Shown here: piece by piece, positions 5,476 to 61,411 of the stretch
Position numbering within the stretch: the stretch's first letter is position 1
Layout of the letters: each line of letters starts with the position of its first letter
NCBI GenBank assembly: GCA_040954595.2
Contig: JBECUI020000027.1
Location: forward strand, 372,001-436,000
Source: Balanoglossus misakiensis
Lineage: Eukaryota; Animalia; Hemichordata
DNA length: 64,000 bases
Direction of reading: 5' to 3'
Made by a program: the position numbers and the translations under genes
The notes under the pieces: generated by a model
Seen by the model: only the letters and a program-made list of their open reading frames with translations
Database searches by the model: none
What the model was told of the DNA's origin: nothing

Positions 5476-5528
5476 GTGGGTAAGCTTTGTAGGAAACTAT
5501 TTTTAAAAAGGCATGGAAGAAAATATGA

Positions 5529-5604
5529 ACTCACTCACTCACTCACTCACTCACTCACTCACTCACTCACTCACTCACTCACTCACTCACTCACTCACTC
5601 ACTC
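5529..5604 (+). repeat. (ACTC)19 simple sequence repeat, orphan
   Basis: Follows ATG GAA GAA AAT ATG AAC; downstream there is only a short signal-peptide-like relic (HLRTQSKSSFFLCFSPLLTIF). Confidence 0.95.
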
Positions 5605-13342: not shown

Positions 13343-13789
13343 TCTTTGTCTCAGCAGGGGATGTGCCGTTCTCATGCTGGGACGGCTGCCAAGGATGCCA
13401 TAAAGAGAGAAAAAAAGGCTCCCCTTGGGACCCTCATGATGACTTGACAGTAACTTCCCAGGCTTAATCAGTCCCTCGGAGACTAGAGGGAGTAAAAACG
13501 ATAAGAAGAATCTGCTTACTGGTACCCCCAAAGCCCTAGGATAGGCTTTCGGGGTGTGCCCTCTCCCAGATGCCTTGAAAACCTTAGCCAGCACCCTAAT
13601 TCCCTATGGCTACTACGCTTTTCTCAAGTTATTGACCAAGAAAAGATCATTTCACCCCCTTACCAAACAATAAAGAGATAACACACACCCCCTTGATAAA
13701 ATCCAGATAGCGAGATAGACTGAAAGTTAAGTTCAAATCTAGTAAACTAAAGCCTTGTAAGAGGCTATTTTTAAGGAGGCATACCAAAG

Positions 13790-14973: not shown

Positions 14974-15419
14974 TCTTTGTCTCGGCAGGGGATGTGCCGT
15001 TCTCATGCTGGGACGGCTGCCAAGAATGCCATGGAGAAAGAAAAAAAAGGCTCCCCTTGGGGCCCAAATGATGACTTGACAGTAACTTTCCAGGCTTAAT
15101 CAGTCCCTCGGGGGCTAGAGGGAGTAAAAACGATAAGAAGAATCTGCTTACTGGTATCCCCAAAGCCCTAGGACAGGCTCTCGGGGTGTGCCCGCTCCCA
15201 GATGCCCGGGAAACCCTAGCCAGAACCCTAATTCCCTATGGCTACTACGCTTTTTCTCAAGTTATTGACCAAAGAACAGACCATTTCTCCCCTTACCAAA
15301 CAATAAAGAGATAACACCCCCCCTTGATAAAATCCAGATAAGGAGATAAACTGAAAGTTAAGTTCAAATCTAGTAAACTAAAGCCTTGTAAGAGGCTATT
15401 TTTAAGGAGGCATACAAAG

Positions 15420-16612
15420 ATGATCAGCAATTTAAGGAAACTCACTCACTCACTCACTCACTCACTCACTCACTCACTCACTCACTCACTCACTCACTCA
15501 CCAACTCTTGCGCGCTAGAACTCCAAAGAAAGCCTAATTCCCTTCGCCGTTTTTCCCCGTTAAAAGCAATACTTTTCTGTATAATCCCAGCGCTGTTCCT
15601 GACAGGCTGCGGCAGCCCCACTCCGAGCAGTGAAGCCCTCATAACAACCTTGACCATCAACGGCCTGGAGGGAGTGGCAACAATTGAGGGAACCAAAGCC
15701 GTTTTTTCTTTTGATAAACTAGACTCAGGTGCGGTGACCGCCTTTGACCTCAGCGTATCCCCCGGGGCCACGGTGACCCATGCCGACGGTACCGCTCTGA
15801 CGGCTGAAAATCTTCTTATCGGCGAGGAATTCCCCGTGCTCGTTACCGCAGAGGATGGACTTACTACCCAAACCTACACCTTATTGATTACCGGGGATAT
15901 TTTCATTACCAACAAATACAGCAACGGCTACTACGTCTGGTTTGACCTAACCTTGCATCAAAATGCTACGGTGGATTTCTACGCAGTAGAAGAAGGCACT
16001 ACCCTACCCAGCGCTGCTTCCGTAGCGGCCATGGATGACACCGATGGCGACCAAGCCGTTGACGGTCAACACTTCAGAGATGACTTGGTTGCCGGGGAAT
16101 CCCACCGTATTGTTCTTTATAACTTGGACACCTCCAAAAACTACGATATTGGCGGCTATTTCAGTGATGGTAAGTATCCCGGCTCTCACGCCGCTGTATT
16201 GACACAGATGACTACAGCCGCAGAACCCAGCACCACGGGTAAGGTGGTTTGGCAGGCTTACGAAGGGCAGCGAATCATTCTGCCGCCTGCAAGGTTGTTG
16301 TCAAATAATGATCTTGCTGGAACATCCCTCTCTCATTCTCTTAATGTGCAAAAAACTACGGCAGAGGGGGAGGTAGTCATCTATGGCAGTATATTTATAT
16401 TCATTCCAGGTACTTATCAAATTGGCTCTGATTACGACTCAGCTGTTTATCAGACTGTAGAGATTATTATTGATTCTAGGGGACATTATTTCATAAATTT
16501 TACAGATGTTATGAAATCGCTAGAAGGTATATATTGGGTTCGATGGACGGCAGACGCTCGGGATACCGATTCCCCCGATGACTATATTGATTTGCGCATA
16601 ATAGAAAGGTAG
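15420..16612 (+). CDS. Phase-variable lipoprotein, array unit 5 ((ACTC)15 at 15440-15499, OFF)
   Basis: Intact downstream frame; ATG offset 80 nt. Confidence 0.9.
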
Positions 16613-17060
16613 TCTTTGTCTCGGCAGGGGATGTGCCGTTCTCATGCTGGGACGGCTGCCAAGAATGCCATGGAGAAAGAAAAGAAAGGCTCCCGTTGGG
16701 GCCAAAATGATGACTTTTCAGTAACTTCCAGGCCTAAGCAGTCCCTCGGAGACTAGAGGGAGTAAAAACGATAAGAAGAATCTGCTTACTGGTACCCCGA
16801 AAGCCCTAGAATAGGCTTTCGGGGTGTGCCCGCTCCCAGATGCCTGGAAAACCCTAGCCAGCACCCTAATTCCCTATGGCTACTACGCTTTTTCTCAAGT
16901 TATTGACCAAGAAAAGATCATTTCACCCCCTTACCAAACAATAAAGAGATAATACCCCCCCCCTTGATAAAATCCAGATAGCGAGATAGACTAAAGCTTA
17001 AGTTCAAATCTAGTAAACTAAAGCCTTGTAAGAGGCTATTTTTAAGGAGGCATGCCAAAG

Positions 17061-18240
17061 ATGATTAGCAATTTAAGGAAACAAACTCACTCACTCACTC
17101 ACTCACTCACTCACTCACTCACTCACCAGCTCTTGCGCGCTAGAACCCCAAAGAAAGCCTAATTCCCTTCGCCGTTTTTCCCCGTTAAAAGCAATACTTT
17201 TCTGTCTAATCCCAGCACTTTTCCTGACAAGCTGCGGTCCCACCGGTCCGAGCCGTGAAACCCTCATAACAACTTTGACCATCAACGGCCTGGAGGGAGC
17301 GGCAACAGTTGATGAAACCAAAGCCGTTTTTTCTTTTGATAAACTAGACTCAGGAGCGGTAAGCACCTTTGACCTCAGCGTATCCCCCGGGGCCACGGTT
17401 ACCCATGCCGACGGTACCGCTCTGACAGCTGAGAATCTTGTTCTTGGCGAGGAATTTCCCGTGCTCGTTACCGCAGAAGATGGGCTTACTACCCAAACCT
17501 ACACCCTATTAATTACCGGGGATATGCTCATTACCAACAAATACAGCAACGGCTACTATGTCTGGTTTGACCTAACCTTGCATCAAAACGCTACGGTGGA
17601 TTTCTACGCAGTAGAAGAAGGAACGACCCTGCCCAGCGCCGCTTCCGTGACGGCCATGGATGACACCGATGGCGACCAAGCCGTCGACGGTCAACACTTC
17701 AGAGATGACTTGATTGCCGGGGAACCCCACCGTATTGTTCTCTACAACCTGGACACTTCCAAAAACTACGATATTGGCAGCTATTTCAGTGATGCTAAGT
17801 ATCCTGACTCTCACGCCGCTGTATTGACACAGATGACTACAGCCGCAGAACCCAGCACCACGGGCAAGGTGGTTTGGCAGGCTTACGAAGGGCAGCGAAT
17901 CATTCTGCCGCCTGCAAGGTTGTTGTCAAATAACGATATACCTGTTGGAACAACCGAATCTCATTCTCTTCATGTGCAAAAAACTACGGCAGAGGGGGAG
18001 GTAGTCATCTATGGCAGTATATTTATATTCATTCCAGGTACTTATCTATTCGGCACTGATTACGACCCAGCTGTTTATCAGACTGTAGAGATTATTATTG
18101 ATTCTAGGGGACATTATTTCATAAATTTTACAGATGTTATGAAATCACTAGAAGGTATATATTGGGTTCGATGGACGCATACATATCAGGATACCGATTC
18201 CCCCGATGACTATATTGATTTGCGCATCATAGAAAGGTAG
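17061..18240 (+). CDS. Phase-variable lipoprotein, array unit 6 (ACAA+(ACTC)10 at 17085-17124, OFF)
   Basis: Intact downstream frame; ATG offset 64 nt. Confidence 0.9.
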
Positions 18241-18688
18241 TCTTTGTCTCGGCAGGGGATGTGCCGTTCTCATGCTGGGACGGCTGCCAAGAATGCCATG
18301 AAGAAAGAAAAGAAAGGCTCCCCTTGGGGCCAAAATGATGACTTTTCAGTAACTTCCAGGCCTAAGCAGTCCCTCGGGGACTAGAGGGAGTAAAAACGAT
18401 AAGAAGAATCTGCTTACTGGTACCCCCAAAGCCCTAGGACAGGCTCTCGGGGGTGTGCCCGCCCCCAGATGCCCGGGAAACCCTAGCCAGCACCCTAATT
18501 CCCTATGGCTACTACGCTTTTTCTCAAGTTATTGACCAAGAAAAGATCATTTCACCCCCTTACCAAACAATAAAGAGATAATACCCCCCCCTTGATAAAA
18601 TCCAGATAGCGAGATAGACTGAAAGTTAAGTTCAAATCTAGTAAACTAAAGCCTTGTAAGAGGCTATTTTTAAGGAGGCATACCAAAG

Positions 18689-19876
18689 ATGATTAGCAAT
18701 TTAAGGAAACTCACTCACTCACTCACTCACTCACTCACTCACTCACTCACTCACTCACTCACTCACTCACCAGCTCTTGCGCGTTAGGACTTCAAAGAAA
18801 GCCTAATTCCCTTCGCCGTTTTTCCCCGTTAAAAGCAATACTTTTCTGTTTAATCCCAGCACTTTTCCTGACAAGCTGCGGCCCCACCGGTCCAAGTCGA
18901 GAAACCCTCATAACAACTTTGACCATCAACGGCCTGGAGGGAGCGGCAACAGTTGATGAAACCAAAGCCGTTTTTTCTTTTGATAAACTAGACTCAGGTG
19001 CGGTGACCGCCTTTGACCTCAGCGTATCCCCCGGGCCACGGTGACCCATGCCGATGGTACCGCTCTGACGGCTGAAAATCTTCTTATCGGCGAGGAGTTC
19101 CCCGTGCTCGTTACCGACAGAGGATGGACTTACTACCCAAACCTACACCCTATTAATTACCGGAGATATTTTCATTACCAACAAATACAGCAACGGCTAC
19201 TATGTCTGGTTTGACCTAACCTTGCATCAAAATGCGACGGTGGATTTCTACGCAGTAGAAGAAGGCACTACCCTACCCAGCGCCGCTTCCGTTGCGGCCA
19301 TGGATGACACCGATGGCGACCAGGCCGTTGACGGTCGGCACTTCAGAGATGCCTTGATTGCTGGGGAACCCCACCGGATTGTTCTCTACAACCTGGGACA
19401 CTTCCAAAAACTACGATATTGGCAGCTATTTCAGTGATGCTAAGTATCCCGGCTCTCACGCCGCTGTATTGACACAGATGACTACAGCCGCAGAACCCAG
19501 CACCACGGGCAAGGTGGTTTGGTCGGCTTACGAAGGGCAGCGAATTATTTTGCCGCCTGCAAGGTTGTTGTCAAATAACGATATACCTGCTGGAACAATC
19601 GAATCTCATACTCTTCGTTCGCAAAAAACTACTGGCAGAGGGGGAGGTAGGCAACTATTCCTTATTTTTTCTAATTCCAGGTACTTATCAATTCGGCGGT
19701 GCTTACGACCCAGCTGTTGATCATACTATAGAGATTATTATTGCTCCTCTGGGATATTATTTCATAATTTTAAGGATGTTATGAAATCACAAGAAGGCAT
19801 ATATTGGGTTCGAATGACGGAGGGAGGTACCGATTCCCCCGATGACTATATTGATTTGCGCATCATAGAAAGGTAA
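18689..19876 (+). pseudogene. Array unit 7 ((ACTC)15 at 18709-18768, OFF) with several extra 1-nt indels (pseudogene or sequencing error)
   Basis: Homologous throughout but broken near 19035, 19117, 19397, 19633 and further on; fragments appear as ORFs 19222-19437 and 19358-19720. Confidence 0.8.
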
Positions 19877-20310
19877 GTCTTTATCCTTCCAGGGTAGATG
19901 CCGTTCACATGCTGGGACGGCTGCCAAAAATGCATGGAGAAAAGAAGGCACCCGTTGGGGCCAAAATGATGACTTTTCAGCAACTTCCAGGCTTAAGCAG
20001 TCCCTCCGGGACTAGAGGAGTAAAAACGATAAGAAGAATCTGCTTACTGGTACCCCGAAAGCCCTAGAATAGGCTTTCGGGGTGCCCGCTCCCCGATGCC
20101 CGGGAAACCTTAGCCAGCACCCTAATTCCCTATGGCTACTACGCTTTTTCTCAAGTTACTGACCAAGAAAAGATCATTTCACCCCTTACCAAACAATAAA
20201 TGAGATACCCCCCCCCTTGATAAAATCAGATAGCGGGATAAACTGAAGCTAAGTTCAAATCTAGTAAACCAAAGCCTTGTAAGAGGCTATTTTTAAGGAG
20301 GCATACAAAG

Positions 20311-21430
20311 ATGTTCAGCAATTTAAGGAAACTCACTCACTCACCAGCCTTGCGCGCTAGAACTCCAAAGAAAGCCTAATTCCCTTCGCCGTTTTTCCCC
20401 GTTAAAAGCAATACTTTTCTGTCTAATCCCAGCACTTTTCCTGACAGGCTGCGGCAGCCCCACTCCGAGCCGTGAAGCCCTCATAACAACTTTGACCATC
20501 AACGGCCTGGAGGGAGCGGCAACAGTTGATGAAACCAAAGCCGTTTTTTCTTTTGATAAACTAGACTCAGGTGCGGTGACCGCCTTTGACCTCAGCGTAT
20601 CCCCCGGGGCCACGGTGACCCATGCCGACGGTACCGCTCTGACGGCTAAAAATCTTCTTATTGGCGAGGAATTCCCGTGCTCGTTACTGCAGAGGATGGA
20701 CTTACTACCCAAACCTACACCCTGTTGATTACCGGGGATATTCTGATTACCAACAAATACAGCAACGGCTACTATGTCTGGTTTGACCTAACCTTGCATC
20801 AAAATGCTACGGTGGATTTCTACGCTGTAGAGGAAGGAACGACCCTGTCCAGCGCCGCTTCCGTTGCGGCCATGGATGACGCCGATGGCGACCAGGCCGT
20901 TGACGGACAACACTTCAGAGATGCCTTGATTGCTGGGGAACCCCACCGTATTGTTCTCTACAACCTGGACACTTCCAAAAACTACGATATTGGCAGCTAT
21001 TTCAGTGATGGTGAGTACCCTGACTCTCACGCCGCTGTATTGACACAAATGACTACAGCGCAGAACCCAGCACTACGGGCAAGGTGGTTTGGTCGGCTTA
21101 CGAAGGTCAAAAAATAATTTTCCCTCCTATAAGGTTGTTGTCGAGAGGAAATAGGAATAGGTTGTTTTTCTCAAGAATTGAGGGACAGAACCATCTTCCC
21201 ATTTATATAGTGGTAGACGACAAGGGTACCTGGGGCTGGGGCGGTGCGTATATTGCCGATATTCATAGTACGATGAGCGTTTTTTATGATTCTAGGGACT
21301 ACATCTCCATAAAAATTGAAGGTGTTGCAAAGTCACTGGAACTTCCTATTACCTAAGCACACAGACAGACGAATCCCATGCCCCTTCTGATGATGATAGC
21401 TTTATTGATTTGCAAGTGCTAGAACGGTAG
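20311..21430 (+). pseudogene. Array unit 8 ((ACTC)3 only) with multiple frameshifts and a divergent C-terminal domain
   Basis: Fragments 20492-20728, 20677-21117 and 21084-21356; ends FIDLQVLER-stop at 21430. Confidence 0.8.
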
Positions 21431-21521
21431 TTTTCTCCCATTCCCACAAGGGCCTGGATTTATGAATTTTCTTTTCCATTGTTTGGCTTTGTAGAAAGCT
21501 GACCCTTGTAAAGTTGGGGAC

Positions 21522-21653
21522 TGCGTTAGGGATGCGGAGGGTGGCCGTCAGTCTCTGACTGGCGGCCAGATCCACCCGCCAGTAGGCGGGTGAGCCGTAG
21601 CGATAGCGGAGCCCGTAGCAGCCCGACCCCGGCAAAGCCGGGGGAACGCCCAA
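21522..21653 (-). ncRNA. Probable Flavo-1-like structured RNA or repeat element
   Basis: Minus strand reads TTGGGCGTTCCCCCGGCTTTGCCGGGGTCGGGCT...multiple hairpins...ATCCCTAACGCA. This matches my recollection of the Flavo-1 motif ends (reported from Bacteroidota and Spirochaetota); not checked against a covariance model. Confidence 0.55.
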
Positions 21654-21941
21654 TTCTTTATTTGTCAGATCAGATTTTATTGTCGCTAAGGTAGAGTGGA
21701 AAAGGATTTTTATCTTCTTTTCCTTTTTTAAGCTATGATTTCTCCTTTTACAACCCTGCTCCTGGGAATGCTTTGTCTTGTGAAAAATATGGAGGGAGGG
21801 GGGAGAGATGTATTTCTTTGTGTGATAGAGGGTTATGAAAAAAGCCATCGGGGGAGGGGAGCTTAGGTGTTTTTGATCATATTATTCGATACATTCACAA
21901 TGTGGGGGTAGAATGGTATAAGTCAATAATCAGGAGTGTGT

Positions 21942-22313
21942 ATGTTACGAAAAAATGGATTGTTTCTTTTGGTGATTGCCTTGGCTTTTTCTACTGTGGC
22001 CTGTGAACTTTTTCAAGATAGCATTGGCGAGGGTACGTATTTTGTTGGTGTTTGGCAAGTCAACTCCGGTGATTTAGGCACTTTTACCTTTCTAGCCGAT
22101 GGTACATGGACCCGTGTAGGCGCTAGTGGTGGTCATGAGAATGGAACTTTCAGTGCAACAGGTAATGCCTCCAGCGGTGTCCTTCTATTGAAGTCAGAAT
22201 TATTCTCCTTCATTGCAGGTGAGCATGAGTATGTGTTTAACCCTGAAGGTACAGAGGTTGAGATCACTTGGGAGGCTTCCTTCATCGGGAAATCGGTTCT
22301 GGTTAAGCAATAA
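21942..22313 (+). CDS. Small lipoprotein, tandem copy 1 (lipocalin-like beta-barrel suspected)
   Basis: AGGAG-ATG, lipobox TVAC, motif FVGVW...FTFLADGTWTR. Confidence 0.85.
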   Translation: MLRKNGLFLLVIALAFSTVACELFQDSIGEGTYFVGVWQVNSGDLGTFTFLADGTWTRVGASGGHENGTFSATGNASSGVLLLKSELFSFIAGEHEYVFNPEGTEVEITWEASFIGKSVLVKQ

Positions 22314-22679
22314 TCCAGGAAATTTATCCGACTGAGATATCACAGACCCTAGCAGCCCGACCCCGGCAAAGCTAGGGGAACGCCTAATTCTTTATTTTTT
22401 AGGTCAGATTTTATTATAGCTAAGGTAGAAAGGAAAAGGATTTTCATCTTCTTTTCCTTTCTACCCTTAGCTATGATTTCTCCTCTTAAAACCCTGCTCC
22501 TGGGAATGCTTTATCTTGTGAAAAGCATGGATGGCTTCGGGGAAGTTAGAGTTATATTTTTTTCACAGTATAGGGTTACATGAAAAAATCATTGAGGGAG
22601 GGAGGCTTTAAGGTTTTTTAAATGGATAAATTTATGAGTAGGGGGTAGAATAGTATAAAGCAAATCATAAGGAGTGTGT

Positions 22680-23064
22680 ATGTTACGAAAAAATGGATTG
22701 TTTCTTTTGGTGATTGCCTTGGCTTTTTCTACAGCGGCTTGTGAACTTTTTCAAGATAGCATTGGCGAAGGTACGTATTTTGTTGGTGTTTGGCCAAGAC
22801 AACACAGGTGGGGAAGGCAAGTTTACCTTTCGATCCGATGGTACATGGACCCGTGTAGGCGATATTTCGGGTAATTACGATGGAACTTTCAGTGCAAGAG
22901 GTAATGCCACCAGCGGTGTCCTCGTATTGAAGTCAGATGAAATCTCCTTATTTCCAGGTGAGCATGAGTATGTGTTTAATACTGATGGTACAGAGGTTGA
23001 GATCACTTGGGAAAACTACATACTGGGAGATCTGGAGGGGAAATCGGTTCTGGTCAAGCAATAA
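22680..23064 (+). pseudogene. Small lipoprotein, copy 2, single +1 frameshift near 22795
   Basis: ORFs 22674-22874 and 22714-23064 join at GTTTGGCCAAGAC (extra C); may be a sequencing error. Confidence 0.75.
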
Positions 23065-23222
23065 TCCAGGAAATTGATCCGACCTGAGATAGCATAGACC
23101 CTAGCAACTCGCCCCCCGGCAAGGCCGGGGGGAACGCTCAATTCTTTATTTCCCAGGTCAGTTTTTATTATAGCTAGGGTAAAGTGGAAAAGGATAATAT
23201 AAGCAAATAATAAGGAGTGTGT

Positions 23223-23606
23223 ATGTTGCGGAAAAATGGATTATTCCTTTTTATAGTTGTCTTCGCTTTTTCTATAACGGCTTGTGGACTATTTCAAGAT
23301 AGTATCGGCGCAAGTACGTATTTTGTTGGTGTTTGGGAAGATCCCTTTGGTGGGGAAGGCACGTTTACCTTTCGAGCCGATGGTACATGGACCCGTGTAA
23401 GTGATGTGTGGGGTAATCTCAATGGAACTTTCAGTGCAACGGGTGATGCCTCCAAGGGTATCCTTGTGTTGGAGTCATCATTCCCCTCCCTTTTTACAGG
23501 TGTGCATGAGTATGAGTTCGAACCTGGAGGTAGAGTAGTTGGAATCTCTTGGAATACTATATTACTGGGATTGTTGGGGGTATCGATTCTGGTCCTCAAT
23601 TACTAG
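23223..23606 (+). CDS. Small lipoprotein, copy 3
   Basis: Lipobox ITAC; paralog of copy 1. Confidence 0.85.
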   Translation: MLRKNGLFLFIVVFAFSITACGLFQDSIGASTYFVGVWEDPFGGEGTFTFRADGTWTRVSDVWGNLNGTFSATGDASKGILVLESSFPSLFTGVHEYEFEPGGRVVGISWNTILLGLLGVSILVLNY

Positions 23607-23765
23607 TCCAGGAAATTTATCCGACTGAGATAGCACAAACCCTAGTAACTCCCCCCCCCCGGCCTTGCCGGGGGGAACGCTCAATTCTTTATTTCCAAGG
23701 TCAGTTTTTATTATAGCTAGGGTAAAGTGGAAAAGGATAATATAAGCAAATAATAAGGAGTGTGT

Positions 23766-24149
23766 ATGTTGCGGAAAAATGGATTATTCCTTTTTATAGT
23801 TGTCTTCGCTTTTTCTATAACGGCTTGTGGACTATTTCAAGATAGTATCGGCGCAAGTACGTATTTTGCTGGTGTTTGGGAAGATCCCTATGGTGGGGAA
23901 GGCACGTTTACCTTTCGAGCCGATGGTACATGGACCCGTGTAAGTGATGTGTTGGGTAATCTCAATGGAACTTTCAGTACAACGGGTGATGCCTCCAAGG
24001 GTATCCTTGAGTTGGAGTCATCATTCCCCTCCCTTTTTACAGGTGTGCATGAGTATAAGTTCGAACCTGGAGGTAGAGTAGTTCTAATCTCTTGGAATAC
24101 TATATTACTGGGATTTTTGGGGGGGAAATCGGTTCTGGTCAAGCAATAA
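23766..24149 (+). CDS. Small lipoprotein, copy 4
   Basis: Nearly identical to copy 3 (543 bp period). Confidence 0.85.
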   Translation: MLRKNGLFLFIVVFAFSITACGLFQDSIGASTYFAGVWEDPYGGEGTFTFRADGTWTRVSDVLGNLNGTFSTTGDASKGILELESSFPSLFTGVHEYKFEPGGRVVLISWNTILLGFLGGKSVLVKQ

Positions 24150-24521
24150 TCCAGGAAATTGATCCGACCTGAGATAGCATAGACCCTAGCAACTCGCCCC
24201 CTGGCAAGGCCGGGGGGAACGCTCAATTCTTTATTTCCAAGGTCAGTTTTTATTATCGCTAAGGTAGAGTGGAAAAGGATTTTTTCTCTTGCTTTCCTTT
24301 TTTCAACTATGGTTTCTCCTTTTACAACCTGCTCCTGGGAATGCTTTGTCTTCTGAAAAACACAGATGGCTTCTGGGTTGGTAGAGATATATTTCTTTGT
24401 TTTTGATAGAGGGTTATGAAAAAAGCCATCGAGGGAGGGGAAGCTTAAGGGTTTTGGGTCATATTAAAAGAAGACGGCTGGCTATATAGAGAAGACGCTG
24501 GACCCGCCTGTGAATGTCTTT

Positions 24522-25190
24522 ATCCTACCAGGGGAGATGCTGTTCTCATGCTGGAAGGGACCAAGAAGGCTGGGAGAGAGGAAGAAAAGGCTCCCGTTGG
24601 GGCTAAAATGATGACTTTTCAGCAACTTCCAGGCCTAAGCAGTCCCTCATGAGCTAGCGGGAGTAAAAACGATAAGAAGAATCTGCTTACTGATAACCCA
24701 AAAGCCCTAGGATAGGCTTTCGGGGTGTCCCGCTCCCAGAGATGCCCGGGAAACCTTAGCCAGCACCCTAATTCCCTATGGCTACCACGCTTTTTCTCGA
24801 ATCATTGACCAAAGAACAGACAATTTCTCCCCTTAGCAAGCAATAAAAGGTAGTCTGCATCCTACCAGGGGAGATGCTGTTCTCATGCTGGAAGGGACCA
24901 AGAAGGCTGGGAGAGAGGAAGAAAAAGCTCCCGTTGGGGCTAAAATGATGACTTTTCAGCAACTTCCAGGCCTAAGCAGTCCCTCATGAGCTAGCGGGAG
25001 TAAAAACGATAAGAAGAATCTGCTTACTGATAACCCAAAAGCCCTAGGATAGGCTTTCGGGGTGTTCCCGCTCCCAGAGATGCCCGGGAAACCTTAGCCA
25101 GCACCCTAATTCCCTATGGCTACCACGCTTTTTCTCGAATCATTGACCAAGAACAGACAATTTCTCCCCTTAGCAAGCAATAAAGAGATA
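24522..25190 (+). repeat. Direct tandem duplication (~337 bp) of the array inter-gene spacer
   Basis: ATCCTACCAGGGGAGATGCTGTTCTCATGCTGG begins at 24522 and again at 24859. Confidence 0.9.
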
Positions 25191-25295
25191 ACACCCCCCT
25201 TGATAAAATCCAGATAAGGAGATAGACTAAAAGTTAAGTTCAAATCTAGTAAACTAAAGCCTTGTAAGAGGCTATTTTTAAGGAGGCATACAAAG

Positions 25296-26463
25296 ATGAT
25301 CAGCAATTTAAGGAAACTCACTCACTCACTCACTCACTCACTCACTCACTCACTCACTCACTCACTCACTCACTCACTCACTCACCAGCTCTTGCGCGCT
25401 AGAACCCCAAAGAAAGCCTAATTCCCTTCGCCGTTTTTCCCCGTTAAAAGCAATACTTTTCTGTTTAATCCCAGCACTATTCTTGACAAGCTGCGGCCCC
25501 ACTCCGAGCAGTGAAACCCTCATAACAACTTTGACCATCAACGGCCTGGAGGGAGTGGCAACAATTGATGAAACCAAAGCCGTTTTTTATTTTGATAAAC
25601 TCGACTCCGCTACGGTAAGCACCTTTGACCTCAGCGTATCCCCCGGGGCCGCGGTGACCCATGCCGATGGTACCGCTCTGACGGCTGAAAATCTTGTTCT
25701 TGGCGAGGAGTTCCCCGTGCTCGTTACTGCAGAGGATGGGATTACTACCCAAACCTACACCCTATTAATTACCGGAGATATTGTCATTACGAATAAACAC
25801 AGCAACGGGTATTATGTCTGGTTTGATGTCATCCTGCATCAAGATGCGGTAGTGGATTTCTACGCAGTAGAAGAAGGAACGACCCTGCCCAGCGCCGCTT
25901 CCGTAGCGGCCATGGATGACACCGATGGCGACCAGGCCGTTGACGGCCATCACTTCCAGGATGCGTTGGTTGCCGGGGAAACCCACCGTATTGTTCTTTA
26001 CAATATGGATACTTCCACTAACTACGATATTGGCAGCTATTTCAGCGGTGGTAAGTATCCAAACTCTCACGCCGCTGTATTGACACAGATGACTACAGCC
26101 GCAGAACCCCGCACTACAGGTAAGGTGGTTTGGCCGGCTTACGAAGGGCAAAAAATTCTGCTTCCCCCTGCCCGGTTGAAATCAACAGATGATATCCCGG
26201 ATGGTTCAGGCCTATCTTATAATTTGGAGGGCCAAGCTTCATGGGCTTCCATTTTAGAAATTCTGGATGGTTCATATCAAATAGGTTGGAACTATGATTT
26301 TGTTCTTCATGCCATGTTTTCTATGATTTTTGATTCCACGACTTATCTATTCACCAAAATAGACGGTGTTCTCAAGGCACACACGGCTTTCTATTTTCTG
26401 AGTTTTTCAGATCAGGATATCGGTACCCCCGAGGATTACATTGATTTACAGGTACGGAACTAA
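25296..26463 (+). CDS. Phase-variable lipoprotein, array unit 9 ((ACTC)17 at 25316-25383, OFF), divergent C-terminus
   Basis: Same promoter, RBS, tract and lipobox; intact downstream frame ending DYIDLQVRN. Confidence 0.9.
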
Positions 26464-50725: not shown

Positions 50726-51094
50726 ATTCCGGGAAAGGAACTTATTGCCAAGCTGAGAACCCAAGCCCAACAATCCCCCGAGCATAAAAGTGGGAGGACA
50801 TACACATTTTGACCTATTTCACAAAGAATCACCCTCTTCCCTATATACCAATAATTTATTGACTTTCTTCCAGCCCCCCCCTCCCCAAAAGCCAAACCAC
50901 ACACCCAAGAGAAGAAAATATTCCCATAACTTGTGATTTCTTAGCAAGAGTGATAAACTTATAAAAAATAAGCTATGCGCTGTAATAACTCAAACGCCTT
51001 TAAAAAACCTTGAGCCATAGTACGGACTTGACAAAAAAGCATCACAGCTCTATTGATTGTCAATCAAATTTAATTGTATAAGGAGAGCAAGCAT

Positions 51095-53705
51095 ATGAAT
51101 GTATCTATCAACTCACTCACTCACTCACTCACTCACTCACTCACTCACTCACTCACTCACTCACTCACTCACCCAACCACTTCCCCGCGTAAGAGATCAA
51201 AGAAAAACCTTAGCTAAAGCTAAACAACTCCTCCTTTTCCCCCTCGTTTTTTACATCTTAACTTCCTGTGCTAATCCTACTGCTCCTACCTTTGAAGCGC
51301 TTAGCTACCGGGACGAAGGCAGGGAAATCACCATTACTGGCCTGGCAACACGAGACAACAGCAGCTTAAGCATACCCCCTTTCATTCATAACAAGCCCGT
51401 CACGGCCATTGCCAAGGCAGCCTTTAAAAATTCATCCCTCAGCAGCGTGAGTATTCCAGACAGCGTAATTACCATAGGAGACGAAGCTTTCAACGCATCG
51501 GCTTCCTTAAGCGAAGTGCATCTAGGAAACGGTATTAGCTCCATAGGCAGCCTGGCCTTCGCCGGGACGGCTCTGAACAAGCTCACCGTCCTGGCCCCAT
51601 CGGCCCCCAGCGTTGCAGGCAGTCCCGCTGAAGCCTTCCCCGCCTCTCTAACAGAAATCACCCTGAACTACCCCATCGGAGCCGAGGGCTATTCCGAAGC
51701 CCCTTGGAGCGGCTTCGGCACACTTAAAGCGGTCCTAGACCCCGCTGTCATTGAAAATGTAGTCCAGGATTATCAAAGCCTTATCATCAGCCTCAAAGCC
51801 CTACCCGGCGTCACCATCACCGTAGAAGCCCACACCGAGGCCACCTTCTCAGGCGAAGCCGCTGCAAGGGCAGACTCTGACCCGACGGCTACAGCAGTCC
51901 AGGAGATAAGCTTGACTGGCCTGATTAACGGTAGCACCTATCACCTGCGGGCCAAAGGAGACCAGGTCTCCCCTGCAAAGACAAGCGAATGGATAGAACT
52001 TCCCACTTCCTACTCTCCCCGCGGCATCGTCATTATTGATGCCACCCCCAGTTCGGGAAAAATCACGGTTGACGTTGGAGCTTCTGAAGGGATGGAAGCA
52101 AAACTCCAGGCATTCACCGACCAGGATTTTAGCATCATGGCCAAAGAAGCCTCCCTTATAGGTAAGCTCGACTCTCAAACAGTGGAAATAGACGGACTCA
52201 GCAAGGAAACCACCTACTACCTGCGGGCCCTGCTCACTGACGGCAGTGCTGAGCACCGCTATTCCACCCCCCTCATCCCTACCACCGACGGCAAGCAGTA
52301 CATCCACCGCCTGAGCGAACTGGCCAAAATCGGAGTGGATACGGAAAACTACCCCGATAACTGGAACTACGAGTTAAAAATTAACCTCAACTTTGCCGAC
52401 GCCAACAACGACGGGGTTATGGATGACCCCTTTGACAGCGACGACAATGCCGATAACGGTAACTGGACACCTCTTACTCCTGGGGTTTATAGCGATACTG
52501 GAGCCTACCAAAGCGGTGGGTATGAGGGGAGCTTTGACGGTATGAACCACAGCATTGAGGGAATGATTATCACGACCCCTGAAGAGAATCGAGTCGGTTT
52601 ATTTGAGGTCGTTGCTGCCAAAGGGAAAATCGAGAATCTGGGGCTGCTGGGGGGCTCTGTCTTGGGGAATGCTAACGTAGGTACTTTGGTCGGTTATAGC
52701 CGAGGTACCATAAGCGGAAGCTATGCCACTGGAGATGTCTCGGGGCAGGGTTTTTTTGTGGGTGGCTTGCTTGGGTATAGTACTGGCAGCATAGCAGACA
52801 GCTATGCTACCGGGGCAGTTACGGGGCAGGGCGACTATGTGGGTGGTTTGGTTGGAGATACGAGAGGACCCATAACAACAGGAAGCTATGCCACCGGTAA
52901 TGTCTCGGGGCAGGGCCAAAATGTTGGTGGTTTGCTTGGGTTCAGCTCAGCTCTCATAACAAACAGCCATGCCACTGGGGATGTCTCGGGGCAGGGTCAC
53001 AATGTGGGTGGTTTGGTTGGAAACAGCACAAAGAATATAATAGGCAGCTATGCCACCGGGGATGTCTCGGGGGGGCAGGACCGGGTGGGTGGCTTGGTTG
53101 GGGATGTTTCTGGTGGTACCATAACGAATAATTATGCCACTGGGTCGGTCACGGGGAGGTCTAACCTTGGCGGCTTGGTCGGACAATTGTGGACAGATAC
53201 GAATAATCCCATAAGGGGTAGCTATGCCACTGGGTCAGTCACGGGGACGAGTGCCCTTGGCGGCTTGGTCGGTTCGGTCTTTGCTGGTCCCATAACGAAC
53301 AGCTATGCCACCGGAGATGTCTCGGGGGAACGATCCGTAGGTGGCCTGGTCGGAGATAGCAGTGCTACCATAACAAACAGTTATGCCACCGGAGCTGTCT
53401 CGGCAACCATGGAGAACATTGGGAGGTTGCTAGGAAGACCGTCTCAAGATACCATAAGGAACAGCTACTACTATGACAACCAGACCATCACCCCCCCTGA
53501 CAACGTCACTCCCAACACCGAAGGCAGCGCCGTAACCCTGGAACAACTAAAAACCTCAACCTGGTACACCGGAACCGACACGGACAATCTAGGCTGGTCC
53601 AACGATGCTTGGATCATCGACGGCCGGGTCAACGGTACTACCCCCTTCCACCCCCACATCAAAAACCTTCCAGACCAGCCCGACATCCCCCTTCCAACAC
53701 TCTAA
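51095..53705 (+). CDS. Phase-variable LRR(BspA)/FN3-like/GLUG-repeat lipoprotein 1 ((ACTC)15 at 51111-51170)
   Basis: Lipobox LTSC; VSIPDSVITIGDEAF; many SYATGxVSG...VGGLVG repeats. In frame from ATG 51099, out of frame from the overlapping ATG 51095. Confidence 0.9.
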
Positions 53706-53707
53706 CC

Positions 53708-54345
53708 ATACCCCCCCCTGCATTTTCGGGGGGGGGGATGCTACCAAGCAAATCCCACACCAGCCCCCCCCTCCCCTGCATTTTCTGGGGGGGGGGATGC
53801 TACCAAGCAAGTCCCACACCAGCCCCCCCTCCCCTGCATTTTCTGGGGGGGGGATGCTACCAAGCAAGTCCCACACCATCCCCCCCCCTCCCCTGCATTT
53901 TCTGGGGGGGGGGATGCTACCAAGCAAGTCCCACACCAGCCCCCCCTTCCCTGCATTTTCTGGGGGGGGGGATGCTACCAAGCAAGTCCCACACCAGCCC
54001 CCCCTTCCCTGCATTTTCGGGGGGGGGCTACCAAGCAAGTCCCACACCAGCCCCCCCTTCCCTGCATTTTCTGGGGGGGGGATGCTACCAAGCAAATCCC
54101 ACACCAGCCCCCCCTTCCCTGCATTTTCTGGGGGGGGGATGCTACCAAGCAAATCCCACACCAGCCCCCCCTTCCCTGCATTTTCGGGGGGGGGATGCTA
54201 CCAAGCAAGTCCCACACCAGCCCCCCCTCCCCTGCATTTTCGGGGGGGGGGGGGGTGCTACCAAGCAAATCTCACACCAGCCCCCCCTCCCCTGCATTTT
54301 CTGGGGGGGGGATGCTACCAAGCAAGTCCCACACCAGTCCCCCTC
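53708..54345 (+). repeat. About 11 tandem ~57-60 bp repeats with poly-C/poly-G arms
   Basis: Unit CCAGCCCCCCCTCCCCTGCATTTTCTGGGGGGGGGATGCTACCAAGCAAGTCCCACA; GCTACCAAGCAA counted 11 times; one degenerate copy at ~61415-61466. Confidence 0.92.
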
Positions 54346-54489
54346 CCCAAAAGCCAAACCACACACCCAAGAGAAGAAAATATTCCCATAACTTGTGATT
54401 TCTTAGCAAGAGTGATAAACTTATAAAAAATAAGCTATGCGCTGTAATAACTCAAACGCCTTTAAAAAGCCTTGAGCCATAGTACGGAC

Positions 54490-54518
54490 TTGACAAAAAA
54501 GCATCACAGCTCTACTAT
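54490..54518 (+). promoter_or_regulatory. Sigma70 promoter of GLUG lipoprotein 2 (counterparts at 51028-51056 and 58428-58456)
   Basis: TTGACA-17 nt-TACTAT; gene 1 has TATTGA and gene 3 has TAAGTT at the -10 position. Confidence 0.7.
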
Positions 54519-54555
54519 TGTCAATCAAATTTAATTGTATAAGGAGATCAAGCAT

Positions 54556-57139
54556 ATGAATGTATCTATCAACTCACTCACTCACTCACTCACTCACTCA
54601 CTCACTCACTCACTCACTTCCCCGCGTAAGAGATCAAAGAGAAACCTTAGCTAAAGCTAAAAAACTCCTCCTTCTCCCCCTCGTTTTTTACATCTTAACT
54701 TCCTGTGCTAATCCTGCTGCTCCTACCTTTGAAGCGCTTAGCTACCGGGACGAAGGCAGGGAAATCACCATTACTGGTCTGGCAAACCAAGACATCAGCA
54801 GCTTAAGCATACCCCCTTTCATTCATAACAAGCCCGTCACGGCCATTGCCAAGGCAGCCTTTAAAAATTCATCCCTCAGCAGCGTGAGTATTCCAGACAG
54901 CGTAATTACCATAGGAGACGAAGCTTTCAACGCATCGGCTTCCTTAAGCGAAGTGCACATGGGTAAGGGCTTAACCTCCATAGGCAATCTGGCCTTCGCC
55001 GGGACGGCTCTGAGCAATCTGACCATCTTGCCCCCAAGGGCCCCCAGTTTTGCAGGCAGCCCCGCTGAAGCCTTCCCCGCATCTCTAACAGAAATCACCC
55101 TAAGTTATCCCATAGGATCCACAGGCTACTCCGAAGCCCCTTGGAGCAGCATTAGCCAACACCTTCAGTTTCTGGACCCCGATGTCATTGAAAACGTAGA
55201 CCCCGCACTGCAAAGCATCATCATCAGCCTGAAAGCCCTACCTGGCCTCACCATCACCGTAGAAGCCCACACCGAAGCCTCATTCGCTGGCACTGCTGCC
55301 GCAACGGCAGACTCAGACCCAACGGCAACAACTTCCCAAAAACTAACCTTAAGCAACCTCACCGACGGAACCTCTTATCACCTGCGGGCTAGGGCTTACC
55401 AAGACAACCCGGACAACTCCACCGAATGGATCAATCTTCCCACTTCCTACTCTCCCCGCGGCATCGTCATTATTGATGCCACCCCCAGTTCGGGAAAAAT
55501 CACGGTTGACGTTGAAGCTTCTGAAGGGATGGAAGCAAAACTCCAGGCATTCATCGACAAGGATTTTAGCATTATAATCAAAGAAGACTTCTTTACAGGC
55601 AGCCTCGACTCTCAAACAGTGGAAATAGACGGACTCAGCAAGGAAACCACCTACTACCTGCGGGCCCTGCTCAGTGACGGCAGCGCTGAGCACCGTTATT
55701 CCACCCCCCTCATCCCCACCGCCGACGGCAAGCAGTACATCCACCGCCTGAGCGAACTGGCCAAAATCGGAGTGGATACGGAAAACTACCCCGATAACTG
55801 GAACTACGAGTTAAAAATGAACCTCAACTTTGCCGACGCCAACAACGACGGGGTTATGGATGACCCCTTTGACAGCGACGACAATGCCGATAACGGTAAC
55901 TGGACACCTCTTGCCCCTGGGGTTTATAGCGATACTGGAGTCTACCAAAGCGGTGGGTATGAGGGGAGCTTTGACGGTATGAACCGCAGCATTGAGGGAA
56001 TGATTATCACGACCCCTGAAGAGAATCGAGTCGGTTTATTTGAGGTCGTTGCTGCCAAAGGGAAAATCGAGAATCTGGGGCTGCTGGGGGGCTCTGTCTT
56101 GGGGAATGCTAACGTAGGTACTTTGGTCGGTTATAGCCGAGGTACCATAAGCGGAAGCTATGCCACTGGAGATGTCTCGGGGCAGGGTGCTTTTGTGGGT
56201 GGCTTGCTTGGGTATAGTACTGGTAGCATAGCAGACAGCTATGCTACCGGGGCAGTTACGGGGCAGGGCGACTATGTGGGTGGTTTGGTTGGATATACGA
56301 GAGGACCCATAACAGGAAGCTATGCCACCGGTAATGTCTCGGGGCAGGGCCACACTGTTGGTGGTTTGCTTGGGTTCAGCTTAGCTCTCATAACAAACAG
56401 CCATGCCACTGGGGATGTCTCAGGGCTGGGCGATAAGACGGGTGGTTTGGTTGGAAGCAGCACAAGGAATATAATAGGCAGCTATGCTACCGGGGCAGTT
56501 ACGGGGCAGAGCGGCTATGTGGGTGGCTTGGTTGGATATGTTGCTGGTGGTACCATAACGAATAATTATGCCACTGGGTCAGTCACGGGGACGACTGCCG
56601 TTGGCGGCTTGGTCGGACTATTGTGGACAGATACGAATAATCCCATAAGGGGTAGCTATGCCACTGGGTCAGTCACGGGGACGACTACCGTTGGCGGCTT
56701 GGTCGGTGAGATCATTGCTGGTCCCATAACGAACAGCTATGCCACCGGAGATGTCTCGGGGGAACGATCCGTAGGTGGCCTGGTCGGAGTTAGCAGTGCT
56801 ACCATAACAAACAGTTATGCCACCGGAGCTGTCTCGGCAACCATTGAGAACATTGGGAGGTTGCTAGGAAGACCGTCTCAAGATACCATAAGGAACAGCT
56901 ACTACTATGACAACCAGACCATCACCCCCCCTGACAACGTCACTCCCAACACCGAAGGCAGCGCCGTAACCCTGGAACAACTAAAAACCTCAACCTGGTA
57001 CACCGGAACCGACACGGACAATCTAGGCTGGTCCAACGATGCTTGGATCATCGACGGCCGGGTCAACGGTACTACCCCCTTCCACCCCCACATCAAAAAC
57101 CTTCCAGACCAGCCCGACATCCCCCTTCCAACACTCTAA
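54556..57139 (+). CDS. Phase-variable LRR/FN3-like/GLUG lipoprotein 2 ((ACTC)11 at 54572-54615)
   Basis: Paralog of gene 1; in frame from ATG 54560, out of frame from ATG 54556. Confidence 0.9.
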
Positions 57140-57140
57140 C

Positions 57141-58235
57141 CATCCCGCCCTCCAAGCCCCCCCCTCTGGGAGGGGGCTTGGAAGGCTTCCCCGCCAAGGC
57201 CATACAGCCCCACCTCACCCCCAAACCCTAGCCTGAACCTCTCCCCGCAATCCCAAGGGAAGCCCTATCCCTAACCATCACCCCCCCTCCCAAGCCCCTA
57301 GGCCCACACCCCCGCAAAGGCGGGGATGATGCCTCTACCAGCAATCCCGCCCTCCAAGCCCCCCCCTCTGGGAGGGGGCTTGGAAGGCTTCCCCGCCAAG
57401 GCCATACAGCCCCACCTCACCCCCCAAACCCTAGCCTGAACCTCTCCCCGCAATCCCAAGGGAAGCCCTATCCCTAACCATCACCCCCCCCTCCCAAGAC
57501 ACCCCCGCAAAGGCGGGGATGATGCCTCTACCAGCAATCCCGCCCTCCAAGCCCCCCCCTCTGGGAGGGGCCTTGGAAGGCTTCCCCGCCAAGGCCATAC
57601 AACCCCACCTCACCCCCAAACCCTAGCCTGAACCTCTCCCCGCAATCCCAAGGGAAGCCCTATCCCTAACCATCACCCCCCCCTCCCAAGACACCCCCGC
57701 AAAGGCGGGGATGATGCCTCTACCAGCAATCCCGCCCTCCAAGCCCCCCCCTCTGGGAGGGGCCTTGGAAGGCTTCCCCCCAAGGCCATACAGCCCCATC
57801 TCACCCCCAAACCCTAGTCTGCACCTCTCCCCGCAATCCCAAGGGAAGCCCTATCCCTACCAGCAATCCCGTCAAGCAAACCCGCCCCCCAAAGCCCCCC
57901 CACTTCGGGCGGGACTTGGAAGGCTTCCCCCCAAGGCCATACAGCCCCATCTCACCCCCAAACCCTAGTCTGCACCTCTCCCCGCAATCCCAAGGGAAGC
58001 CCTATCCCTACCAGCAATCCCGTCAAGCAAACCCGCCCCCCAAAGCCCCCCCACTTCGGGCGGGACTTGGAAGGCTTCCCCCCAAAGGCCATACAGCCCC
58101 ACCTCACCCCCAAACCCTAGCCTGAACCTCTCCCCGCAATCCCAAGGGAAGCCCTATCCCTACCAGCAATCCCGTCAAGCAAACCCGCCCCCCAAAGCCC
58201 CCCCACTTCGGGCGGGACTTGGAAGGCTTCCCCCA
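57141..58235 (+). repeat. C-rich tandem repeats, 7 core copies with ~150-200 bp periods and embedded hairpins
   Basis: GGAAGGCTTCCCC core near 57180, 57382, 57575, 57767, 57918, 58069 and 58221; hairpins CCAAGCCCCCCCTCTGGGAGGGGGCTTGG and CCCGCAAAGGCGGG. Confidence 0.9.
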
Positions 58236-58494
58236 ACAGACCAGACTACCTCCCAAACCACTCCTTTCTAATACCAACCTCCACTCCCAAGACCATACTT
58301 CCCATAAAACAGAAAATAATCTTTTAAAAACTTGGTTTTCCCTCTAAAACGCAATAAGCTTTTATACCGTAGTGTCCTTATTCAATATTACTGCTCAATC
58401 AAAAAGTCTTAGACCTAAGGACAAGACTTGACAAAAAAGTATCACTACGATAAGTTAGACCAAGTAAAATCAAACTTTTAAGGAGACCCAGCAT

Positions 58495-61411
58495 ATGAAA
58501 CATATGAATTTATTGACCAACTCACTCACTCACTCACTCACTCACTCACTCACTCACTCACTCACTCACTCACTCACTCACTCACTCACTTTCCCGCGTA
58601 AGAGGTCAAAGGAAAACCTTAGCTGAAAGAGTCACCCTTTTACCCCTTGCCTTCTACCTTTTAAGCTCCTGTAATAACCCCGCTGCTCCTTCCTTTGAAG
58701 CGGTCACCTACCGGGACAACGGCACGGAAATCACCATTACTGGTCTGGCAACACAAGACAGCACAACCCTCACCATACCCTCAGTCATTCAAGACAAGCC
58801 TGTGACCACCATAGCCAAAGCAGCCTTTAAAAACTCATCCCTTACCAGCGTAACCATACCAGACACTGTAAAAACCATAGAAGATGAAGCCTTTAACGCA
58901 TCGGCCTCCCTTGCTGAAGTTCACCTAGGAAAAGGCATTAGCTCCATAGGAAGCCTGGCCTTCGCCGCTACGGCCCTGACCAAGCTGACCATCTTAGCCC
59001 CAACGTCCCCCAGCTTTACAGGCAGCCCCGCCGAAGCCTTTCCTTCATCCTTAACGGCTATTACCTTAAACTACCCCATCGGCTCTACCGGCTACTCAGA
59101 AGCCCCCTGGAGCGGCTTCGGCACACAAAAAGCGGTCCTGGACCCCGCTGTCATTGAAAACGTAGACCCCGAACATCAAAGCATCATCATCAGCCTCAAA
59201 GCCCTACCTGGCATCACCATCACCGTAGCAGCTTACACCGAACCTGGCTTTACTGAACCTGCCGCCGCAACGGCAGACTCTGACCCAACGGCAACAGCAG
59301 CCCAGGACATAACCTTGACCGGCCTGACAAACGAAACCCCCTACTACCTGCGGGCAAAAGCATACCAAGACGACCCAGAAAACCCCACAGACTGGATAGA
59401 ACTCTCAAGCAACCCCAGTATCCCAAGACCACACCCCACAGTCAGCATAGAAGGGGTTAGTCTCGACTCTGCCAATCTCACCCTTATCCTCAGCATCAAA
59501 GCCCTAAGCGGGGTCACCATCACTGCCTCGGTACACAACCAGGCTGACTACTCAGACCAAGCCGTGGCCTCAGAATCCCTCGAAGCCTCAGGAGAGAGAG
59601 AAGAGATAAGTTTTACTGGCATGACCAGAGGAAATCCCTACTACATTCGACTTCAGGGCCTAAACTCCCAAGGGGAAACAAGCGACTGGACAGAAGCCCC
59701 CGGCAATCCCTACATCCTTCCCATCGCCCGCATTACCGATGCCATACCCCGTTCAGGAAAGATAACGGCCATGGTTGAGGCTCTCGAAGGTACAGAAGCA
59801 AAAATCCAGGCCTCCACAAATAAAGATTTCACGACGATCACCAAGGAACTCACCTTTACTGGCGAGGGCCTGGGCAACGAGAAAGCCCTGGTAATAGACG
59901 GGCTCATTGATGATAGCACCCACTACCTGCGTACCCTCCTGAGTGACGACAGCGCTGAGTACCGCTATTCCACGCCCCTCATCCCCACAGCCGACGGCAC
60001 GCAGCACATCCACCGCCTAAGCGAACTGGCTAAAATCGGAGTGGATACGGAAAACTACCCCGATAACTGGAACTACGAGTTAAAAACAAACCTCAACTTC
60101 GCTGACGCCGACAACGATGGGGTTATGGATGACCCCTTCGACAGCGACGATGATGCCGATAACGGTAACTGGACACCTCTTACTCCTGGAACTTATGACA
60201 ACGATGGAAACTACGTAAGCGGTGGATATGCTGGGAACTTTGATGGTAAAAAACACAGTATCGAGGGAATGAGCATCACGACACCTGAAGCTAATAGAGT
60301 CGGTTTTTTTAATTCTATGCTTGCTGGAGGTCAAATTAAGGATCTGGGGCTGCTGGGGGGCTCTGTCTCGGGGAATGCTAGCGTAGGTACTTTGGTCGGT
60401 TATAGCCGAGGTACCATAAGCGGAAGCTATGCCACTGGAGATGTCTCGGGACAGGGCCAATATGTGGGTGGTTTGCTTGGGTATAGTACTGGTAGCATAG
60501 CAGGCAGCTATGCTACCGGGGATATCTCGGGAGATCAAGTCGTGGGTGGTTTGGTTGGAGATACGAGAGGACCCATAACAGGAAGCTATGCCACCGGTAA
60601 TGTCTCGGGGCAGGGCCAAAATGTGGGTGGTTTGGTTGGAGAGAATAATGGGGGCATAACAGATAGCCATGCCACTGGGGATGTCTCGGGGGAAGAAACC
60701 GTAGGTGGTTTGGTTGGAAGCAACTCAAGGAATATAACAGGAAGCTATGCCACCGGTAATGTCTCGGGGCAGGGCCAAAATGTGGGTGGTTTGCTTGGGT
60801 ATGGTGGTGGTGGTACCATAACGAATAGTTATGCCACTGGGTCAGTCACGGGGACAAGTGCCCTTGGCGGCTTGGTCGGACAATTGTGGACAGATACGAA
60901 TAATCCCATAAGGGGTAGCTATGCCACTGGGTCAGTCACGGGGACAAGTGCCCTTGGCGGCTTGGTCGGTTCGATCTTTGCTGGTCCCATAACGAACAGC
61001 TATGCCACCGGAGATGTCTCGGGGGAACAAGTCGTAGGTGGTTTGGTCGGACAACAGTACTCTGCTCATTTTATAACAAACAGTTATGCCACCGGAGCTG
61101 TCTCGGCAACCATTGAGAACATTGGGAGGTTGCTAGGAGGAAGACAGTCTCAAGGTACCATAAGGAACAGCTACTACTATGACAACCAGACCATCACCCC
61201 CCCTGACAACGTCACTCCCAACACCGAAGGCAGCGCCGTAACCCTGGAACAACTAAAAACCTCAACCTGGTACACCGGAACCGACATGGGCAATCTAGGC
61301 TGGTCCAACGATGCTTGGATCATCGACGGCCGGGTCAACGGTACTACCCCCTTCCACCCCCACATCAAAAACCTTCCAGACCAGCCCGACATCCCCCTTC
61401 CAACTCTCTAA
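58495..61411 (+). CDS. Phase-variable LRR/FN3-like/GLUG lipoprotein 3 ((ACTC)17 at 58520-58587, OFF)
   Basis: AGGAG-ATG AAA CAT ATG AAT TTA TTG ACC AAC, then the tract, then shifted-frame LSRVRGQRKTLAERVTLLPLAFYLLSSC continuing into ORF 58802-61411; carries one extra FN3-like module. Confidence 0.9.

Follow-up and report, generated by a model that had tools for sequence, protein, structure and literature searches.

In the stretch of DNA analysed here (the window: 64 000 nucleotides, positions 372,001 to 436,000 of contig JBECUI020000027.1, Balanoglossus misakiensis assembly GCA_040954595.2), three tandem lipoprotein genes and a separate array of nine others carry a perfect (ACTC)n tract behind the likely start codon and ahead of the lipoprotein signal. 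This tract is probably a slipped-strand frameshift switch, by which each predicted surface lipoprotein would be turned ON or OFF independently. The UPF0164 marker of the window gave best matches of 47–54% identity, and the named ones were from Spirochaetaceae or Spirochaetales. The three tandem genes had been described in an initial annotation as lipoproteins with leucine-rich repeats (LRR), FN3-like domains and a GLUG beta-helix, with (ACTC)n in the signal n-region five to eight codons past the start. This was borne out: perfect tracts start 16, 16 and 25 nt (5.3, 5.3 and 8.3 codons) past the ATG spaced from the Shine–Dalgarno (SD) sequence in genes 1, 2 and 3. The traits of a contingency gene were found together, i.e. 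a long perfect repeat of a unit that is not a multiple of three in the 5' coding region, an intact body under purifying selection and stops in the other frames. The parts of the genes are listed below in window coordinates.

51028..51056, + strand: promoter-like site of gene 1, TTGACA-17-TATTGA, below the threshold of the consensus scan; its position is the same in all three genes.
51080..51101, + strand: SD AAGGAG of gene 1 (51080–51085), ATG at 51095 (spacing 9, out of frame) and overlapping ATG at 51099 (spacing 13, in frame).
51111..51172, + strand: (ACTC)15.5 tract of gene 1, in the signal n-region.
51174..53705, + strand: open body of gene 1, with basic n-region, h-region, lipobox Cys (51267–51269), BspA LRR, FN3-like domains, acidic linker and GLUG beta-helix.
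54339..54571, + strand: block upstream of gene 2, 98% identical to 50877–51110.
54490..54518, + strand: promoter-like site of gene 2, TTGACA-17-TACTAT, followed by the SD (54541–54546), ATG 54556 (out of frame) and ATG 54560 (in frame).
54572..54618, + strand: (ACTC)11.75 tract of gene 2.
54620..57139, + strand: open body of gene 2, with the architecture of gene 1 and lipobox Cys at 54704–54706.
58428..58519, + strand: promoter-like site of gene 3, TTGACA-17-TAAGTT, SD (58480–58485) and ATG at 58495 and 58504 (these share a frame, which is not that of the body).
58520..58590, + strand: (ACTC)17.75 tract of gene 3.
58592..61411, + strand: open body of gene 3 (939 codons), in which the FN3-like region is longer by about 100 residues; lipobox Cys at 58670–58672.

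The three genes share one promoter-like layout (TTGACA, a 17-nt spacer and a −10-like hexamer), which passed the consensus scan in gene 2 alone. The distance from AAGGAG to the ATG is 9 nt in each, and the tract ends 27–32 codons before the lipobox Cys. Past the tract, one frame is open for 843, 839 and 939 codons in genes 1, 2 and 3, and the other two are closed by stops within 2–14 codons. The out-of-frame peptides are short (32–43 amino acids), and no in-frame ATG, GTG or TTG was found from tract to lipobox in any of the three (translations; DNA read by eye). The tract was predicted to be largely unpaired in the mRNA (0.77–0.94), and occlusion of the SD by the tract was set aside on this ground.

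Lipoprotein signals were recognized by eye, without a dedicated predictor, from the lipobox sequences ILTSC, ILTSC and LLSSC behind a basic and then a hydrophobic stretch. Pfam LRR_5 and Glug scored above cut-off in all three proteins, and fn3 was sub-threshold in two. The structure model of the LRR/GLUG protein (pLDDT 54, low confidence) has an LRR part, beta-sandwiches and a beta-helix; the chains that it matched best contain FN3. From this domain content, the three proteins are predicted to be exposed at the surface and to bind ligands. Gene 3 is 76% identical to gene 1 and 76% identical to gene 2, so that the three are paralogous. Pairwise ratios of nonsynonymous to synonymous substitution rates (dN/dS) were 0.22–0.47 in the signal, LRR and FN3 parts. 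In the GLUG helix the ratio was 0.77–1.58 at low dS, the C-terminal part was almost identical among the genes and the overall ratio was below 1. This pattern would be compatible with gene conversion together with diversification of the helix. Because the bodies are open and the signal, LRR and FN3 parts are constrained, the three genes are not decaying.

Thirteen perfect ACTC tracts of 3.5–19.5 units are present in the window, all on the + strand, and their lengths differ between near-identical paralogues. Each begins 4–25 nt past an ATG on the stop-free strand. Twelve precede a lipoprotein signal; the remaining one, at 5529, precedes a decayed signal without a body. The tracts outside genes 1 to 3 belong to two features.

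8857..26463, + strand: array family of nine lipoprotein genes with (ACTC)3.5–17.5, none of them in frame from its ATG; the bodies are tandem beta-sandwiches, and the C-terminal domain varies.
5436..5700, + strand: orphan leader with a promoter-like site, an ATG, (ACTC)19.5 at 5529–5606, a decayed signal sequence and no gene body.

Tracts equally common in intergenic or non-surface contexts across the genome had been named in the initial annotation as counter-evidence to its proposed module. None was found between genes or in a cytoplasmic gene within the 64-kb window, the 13 tracts being those of 12 lipoprotein genes and one orphan leader. The contingency-switch reading fits the window, where every tract closely follows a start codon and purifying selection acts on the bodies; the module may extend across the genome. 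Ten other candidate genes of the window were examined: all are tract-less, and nine of them contain a lipobox-like motif. (ACTC)3 gave 152 overlapping matches in the window versus a mean of 0.01 in 100 shuffles, and the sole other tetranucleotide run of at least three units was one (GAGG)3. (ACTC)n encodes Thr-His-Ser-Leu (THSL) without stops. Its complement encodes Ser-Glu-stop-Val, with a stop in every frame, so that the unit can lie inside a gene on the ACTC strand only.

The array proteins were modelled as tandem beta-sandwiches; both structure models are of low confidence (pLDDT 54–56) and were used for domain class alone. Array members (10692–26460) are near-identical over the first 230 residues and highly variable in the last domain, as expected of a diversified binding tip. 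The array is interrupted at 21936–24149 by four tandem tract-less lipoprotein-like paralogues of about 125 amino acids each. The orphan leader is followed by a tract-less, frameshifted lipoprotein gene at 6136–7313, with array-like architecture by eye, and a 21-bp motif of the array intergenic regions lies between the two (5981–6001). Divergent from the orphan leader, at 3–5153 on the − strand, a tract-less BspA-type LRR lipoprotein of more than 1700 amino acids, with repeats of about 147 amino acids, continues past the window edge.

None of the 12 tract genes (nine array, three GLUG) is in frame from its SD-spaced ATG (P = (2/3)^12 = 0.008). Bodies are intact in nine of them and, restricted to those, P = (2/3)^9 = 0.026. 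In genes 1 and 2, the start reads ATGAATG. The second ATG of this overlap, 4 nt past the first and at a spacing of 13 nt from the SD, is in frame with the body. The first ATG was taken as the main start because it matches the start of gene 3 (MNVSIN vs MNLLTN). It is predicted as such, and a weak ON state may arise from the second. Several points weigh against the switch and the in-frame deficit. If the second ATG were the main start of genes 1 and 2, two of 12 genes would be ON and the deficit would not be significant; all start codons are predictions. Single-base indels are present in three of the nine array copies (9157–9201, 19033–19395 and 20349–21160), several of them at short homopolymers, and may be assembly errors. 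Sequencing data came from three runs of one sample, as contigs only, with repeats skipped. One of the runs (X1) is one base different from the window at 50874 and, together with the indels, this means that the assembly may carry indel errors. Differences in tract length are those between paralogues only, as the sample contigs skip repeats.

Genes 1 and 2 might also be simply ON from the second ATG, the tract tuning n-region length or expression level instead of acting as a binary switch. Open reading frames (ORFs) of 868 and 859 amino acids begin at ATG 51099 and ATG 54560 and continue across the tract, and a long SD spacing is tolerated by the array genes (11 nt from AAGGAG to ATG). This is improbable, however, given the homology of the gene 3 start to the first ATG and the spacing of the latter (9 nt vs 13; four other window genes are at 6–7). 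Moreover, an in-frame start is lacking in gene 3 and throughout the array, and with a unit of four bases a shift of frame is unavoidable. A neutral expansion of repeats in genes that decay, or an artefact of assembly, would agree with the lack of any gene in frame, with the frameshifts in three array copies and in the 6136 gene (several at short homopolymers) and with the one bodyless leader. It is nevertheless very hard to reconcile with three GLUG bodies open over 839–939 codons at an overall dN/dS below 1, or with tracts that are perfect and restricted to one position. Both flanks of the gene 3 tract were also present in the run X1 contigs.

For the frameshift switch, we infer the following steps from the anatomy, the frame states and the selection on the bodies. 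ACTC units would be added or removed by replication slippage, which is well established in phase variation by simple sequence repeats (SSRs). One length class in three would give the full preprolipoprotein. The neutral THSL stretch would be cleaved off together with the signal peptide, so that the mature protein would be independent of tract length. At any given time most members would be kept OFF by selection (host defence, phage or cost). In genes 1 and 2, the overlapping starts of ATGAATG may supply a weak third state. The mechanism is a textbook one. The lineage, the ACTC unit and the lipoprotein targets appear new: no description of ACTC leader switches, or of tetranucleotide switches in spirochaete lipoproteins, was found in the literature searched, which was largely without subscription journals and supplements. 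Tetranucleotide tracts of Haemophilus influenzae are reported to be destabilized by loss of polI rather than of mutS (PMC12721329), so that mismatch-repair status, put forward as a check in the initial annotation, is a poor test for four-base units.

The GLUG genes had also been said to have no evident similarity to the array family. This held for the bodies (best BLASTP match 26 amino acids, E 0.031; no tblastn cross-match in either direction, the gene 3 query being its first 480 residues) but not for the leaders, which are not wholly unrelated. Without its tract, the gene 3 leader reached z 3.3–5.7 with three leaders of the array and z 5.0 with that of the orphan (composition-preserving block shuffles), and 14 tract-less genes peaked at z 2.1 in the leader comparison. 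The gene 1 leader scored 3.7 against the orphan, but 0.1–2.0 against the array leaders. In tract-free profile searches the orphan was linked strongly to the array (E 8.5e-9) and weakly to GLUG (E 0.0025). An orphan plus GLUG profile, which includes the array-like orphan, recovered 9/9 array leaders (E about 1e-6 to 1e-7). With the tract removed, however, the array and GLUG profiles found no direct match at E < 10 in either direction (nhmmer). Direct matches between these profiles that needed two retained ACTC units were gone once the tract was fully removed, and were discounted. A Q(R/S)K motif stands in one frame behind the tract in the array, GLUG and orphan groups (alignment). The motif C..P..P..EAL is recurrent behind the lipobox (by eye), although the tract-less 6136 gene also has the post-Cys EAL. 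These similarities would fit a portable leader, i.e. a cassette of promoter, SD, start, ACTC tract, signal peptide and short tether recombined onto unrelated bodies, possibly with the tract as crossover site. The bodyless leader at 5529 is in its favour. Against it, promoter, SD and h-region converge in any lipoprotein gene, and identical leaders on two different bodies were not seen among the sequencing-run contigs. Such a cassette, which would complement the switch, is a tentative explanation, somewhat less likely than not. A contig end in run X2 ahead of 51195, ending in GATC, was not taken as a leader swap and is possibly a ligation junction.

Alternatively, ACTC, being stop-free, neutral and tolerated in the n-region, may have grown separately in the ancestor of each family and then spread by within-family duplication only, a reading of real but less than likely standing. 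The layout recurs in Orbaceae, in Nannocystaceae, Bacteroidota and others (signal-peptide-like cases among the GTDB matches listed); in metagenome contigs it precedes genes that resemble DNA methyltransferases. (ACTC)8 was found at no fewer than 121 loci (at least) in GTDB genomes, most of them in contexts other than ATG-tract-ORF. Under a mechanical rule, this arrangement fitted 15 loci on the ACTC strand versus two on the GAGT strand, four of the 15 being from one genome. In H. influenzae, too, one unit is described as shared among unrelated genes (PMC2651432). On the other hand, 48 of the 60 tetranucleotide classes are stop-free, yet the window uses ACTC alone, 13 times. (ACTC)6 occurs at least once in just 5/401 spirochaete genomes, counting the centre genome picked for having one, and part of the leader similarity survives tract removal. 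Since the unit is rare but recurrent, at one position and in unrelated phyla, sharing it is in itself no evidence of common origin. From the sequences, common ancestry of the array and GLUG leaders is plausible and would be old, though unproven, and nothing indicates a recent copy. The leaders of both families probably go back to an old shared source, independent recruitment being nearly as likely. A broader picture, in which a reusable switchable export leader was grafted by recombination onto unrelated bodies and gave dozens of genes surface display together with ON/OFF switching, nearly all of them being OFF, and in which ACTC was the preferred leader switch in parallel in several phyla, is speculative and rather unlikely.

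One such recurrence is that of Orbaceae bacterium ac157xtp (CP133583), with 34 tract loci (L210–L243). Of these, 33 were analysed and one with fewer than five whole units was left out. The 33 are paralogues, each encoding a signal peptide, with (ACTC)8–40 ahead of it. From a conserved GTG/ATG, 1/33 is in frame (P = 2.7e-5, with the start picked after viewing the sequences); from a nearby ATG, where present, 1/23. The start assignment is uncertain, as the start motif also reads as a −10 box. No Pfam family scored above cut-off in the one member scanned. Being a complete named genome, this bacterium is a more tractable model of the switch. Viral contigs held 24 ACTC tract loci. In metagenome contigs (L255, L261, L272, L308 and L337), an SD, an ATG and (ACTC)7–12 stand ahead of a DNA-methyltransferase-like ORF (motifs by eye), in a phasevarion-like layout. 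In low-GC spirochaetes (Brachyspira-like, a guess from GC; G128:C1:1241153-1245358 and G284:C191), ATGA(ACTC)15–20 lies in a short upstream ORF. The end of this ORF lies close to the SD-ATG of a gene that looks methyltransferase-like by eye; the arrangement is possibly a translational-coupling switch and not an in-gene frameshift.

Relatives of the window were searched at several levels. The best UPF0164 match among 301 sampled spirochaete genomes was 43% identical, and (ACTC)5 was found in 0/12 genomes of the family of that match. No exact match was found in the protein collection for ten window proteins (0/10). Residues 30–420 of gene 1 gave LRR-domain matches only in the orthologue search; residues 180–600 of gene 3 gave none there, and one 27% match in 1/401 spirochaete genomes. 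The array profile had 67 partial matches, nearly all to the first beta-sandwich domain. The related-locus and plasmid searches found nothing. In the sample, one DNA run contains 90% of the sampled window words and amounts to 339 Mb of contigs, which suggests a host-associated or mixed sample. Summed contig depth in run X1 was 6–9 at unique flanks but 200–300 in the 5' part of gene 3. A stretch of 421 bases around the gene 3 leader was fitted by 81 contigs, many of which differ from it in letters. Depth and contigs together hint at many more paralogues and do not give a copy number.

Two repeat arrays lie between the three genes.

53711..54348, no strand: palindromic C-run/G-run unit of 57 bp, repeated in tandem about 11 times from gene 1 to gene 2, with one related copy 3' of gene 3.
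57142..58234, no strand: tandem repeats of 192 bp and 151 bp, with hairpins, that separate gene 2 from gene 3.

These C-run/G-run hairpin arrays have no spacers and are probably amplified terminator-like ends; Rfam gave 0 matches across 50700–61700. Elsewhere in the window, an RPE65-family (carotenoid oxygenase-like) gene is found at 30086–31690, in a spirochaete.

If the switch is real, frameshift phase variation in the style of opa and hgp would extend to the lipoproteins of a spirochaete lineage without a close described relative, and the mostly-OFF pattern recently published for opa would recur in two more bacteria, which are unrelated. Should the leaders turn out to be a single grafted cassette, they would illustrate the route by which new genes acquire a contingency switch, on which little is settled so far. 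The tracts of Orbaceae ac157xtp resemble those of the window in the ACTC unit, its strand and its place about seven codons past the putative start and before the signal peptide. Unlike the window families, they belong to a gammaproteobacterium and to one secreted-protein family, with no lipobox in the N-termini viewed and no protein similarity by tblastn. In Treponema pallidum, phase variation relies on homopolymer tracts (promoter poly-G) with a mainly transcriptional effect, whereas a tetranucleotide would here shift the frame in a coding leader. T. pallidum is listed among the species with SSR repertoires (PMC11868660), and in both systems the surface proteins of a spirochaete would vary by means of repeats (PMC11868660, PMC7864442). 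N-terminal enrichment of repeats is reported in several pathogens (PMC3315296). The tetranucleotide tracts of H. influenzae are described as lying just past the start, encoding mostly hydrophilic peptides and marking no single gene class (PMC2651432). Those of hgp (CCAA), lic1A, lic2A and lic3A (CAAT) and the trimeric autotransporters share with the window the post-start position, a hydrophilic tetrapeptide, similar lengths and a unit common to unrelated genes (PMC2651432). Nine units are mixed in H. influenzae, whereas the window has one, and its targets are tandem lipoprotein families; ACTC is absent from the main text of that paper (PMC2651432). In opa, repeats in the signal sequence are reported to set the frame, with fewer genes in frame than the one-third expected (PMC13183285). 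With the (CTCTT)n of Neisseria gonorrhoeae opa, the window families have in common a multi-copy surface family, a frame-setting coding repeat in the signal region, an in-frame deficit and signs of paralogue homogenization (PMC13183285). They gave no opacity Pfam match and have a different repeat unit, and would be opa-like in working only. Where opa has a five-base unit and beta-barrels (PMC13183285), the window has ACTC in the n-region of lipoproteins, in a spirochaete and in two dissimilar families, which would switch by the same principle.

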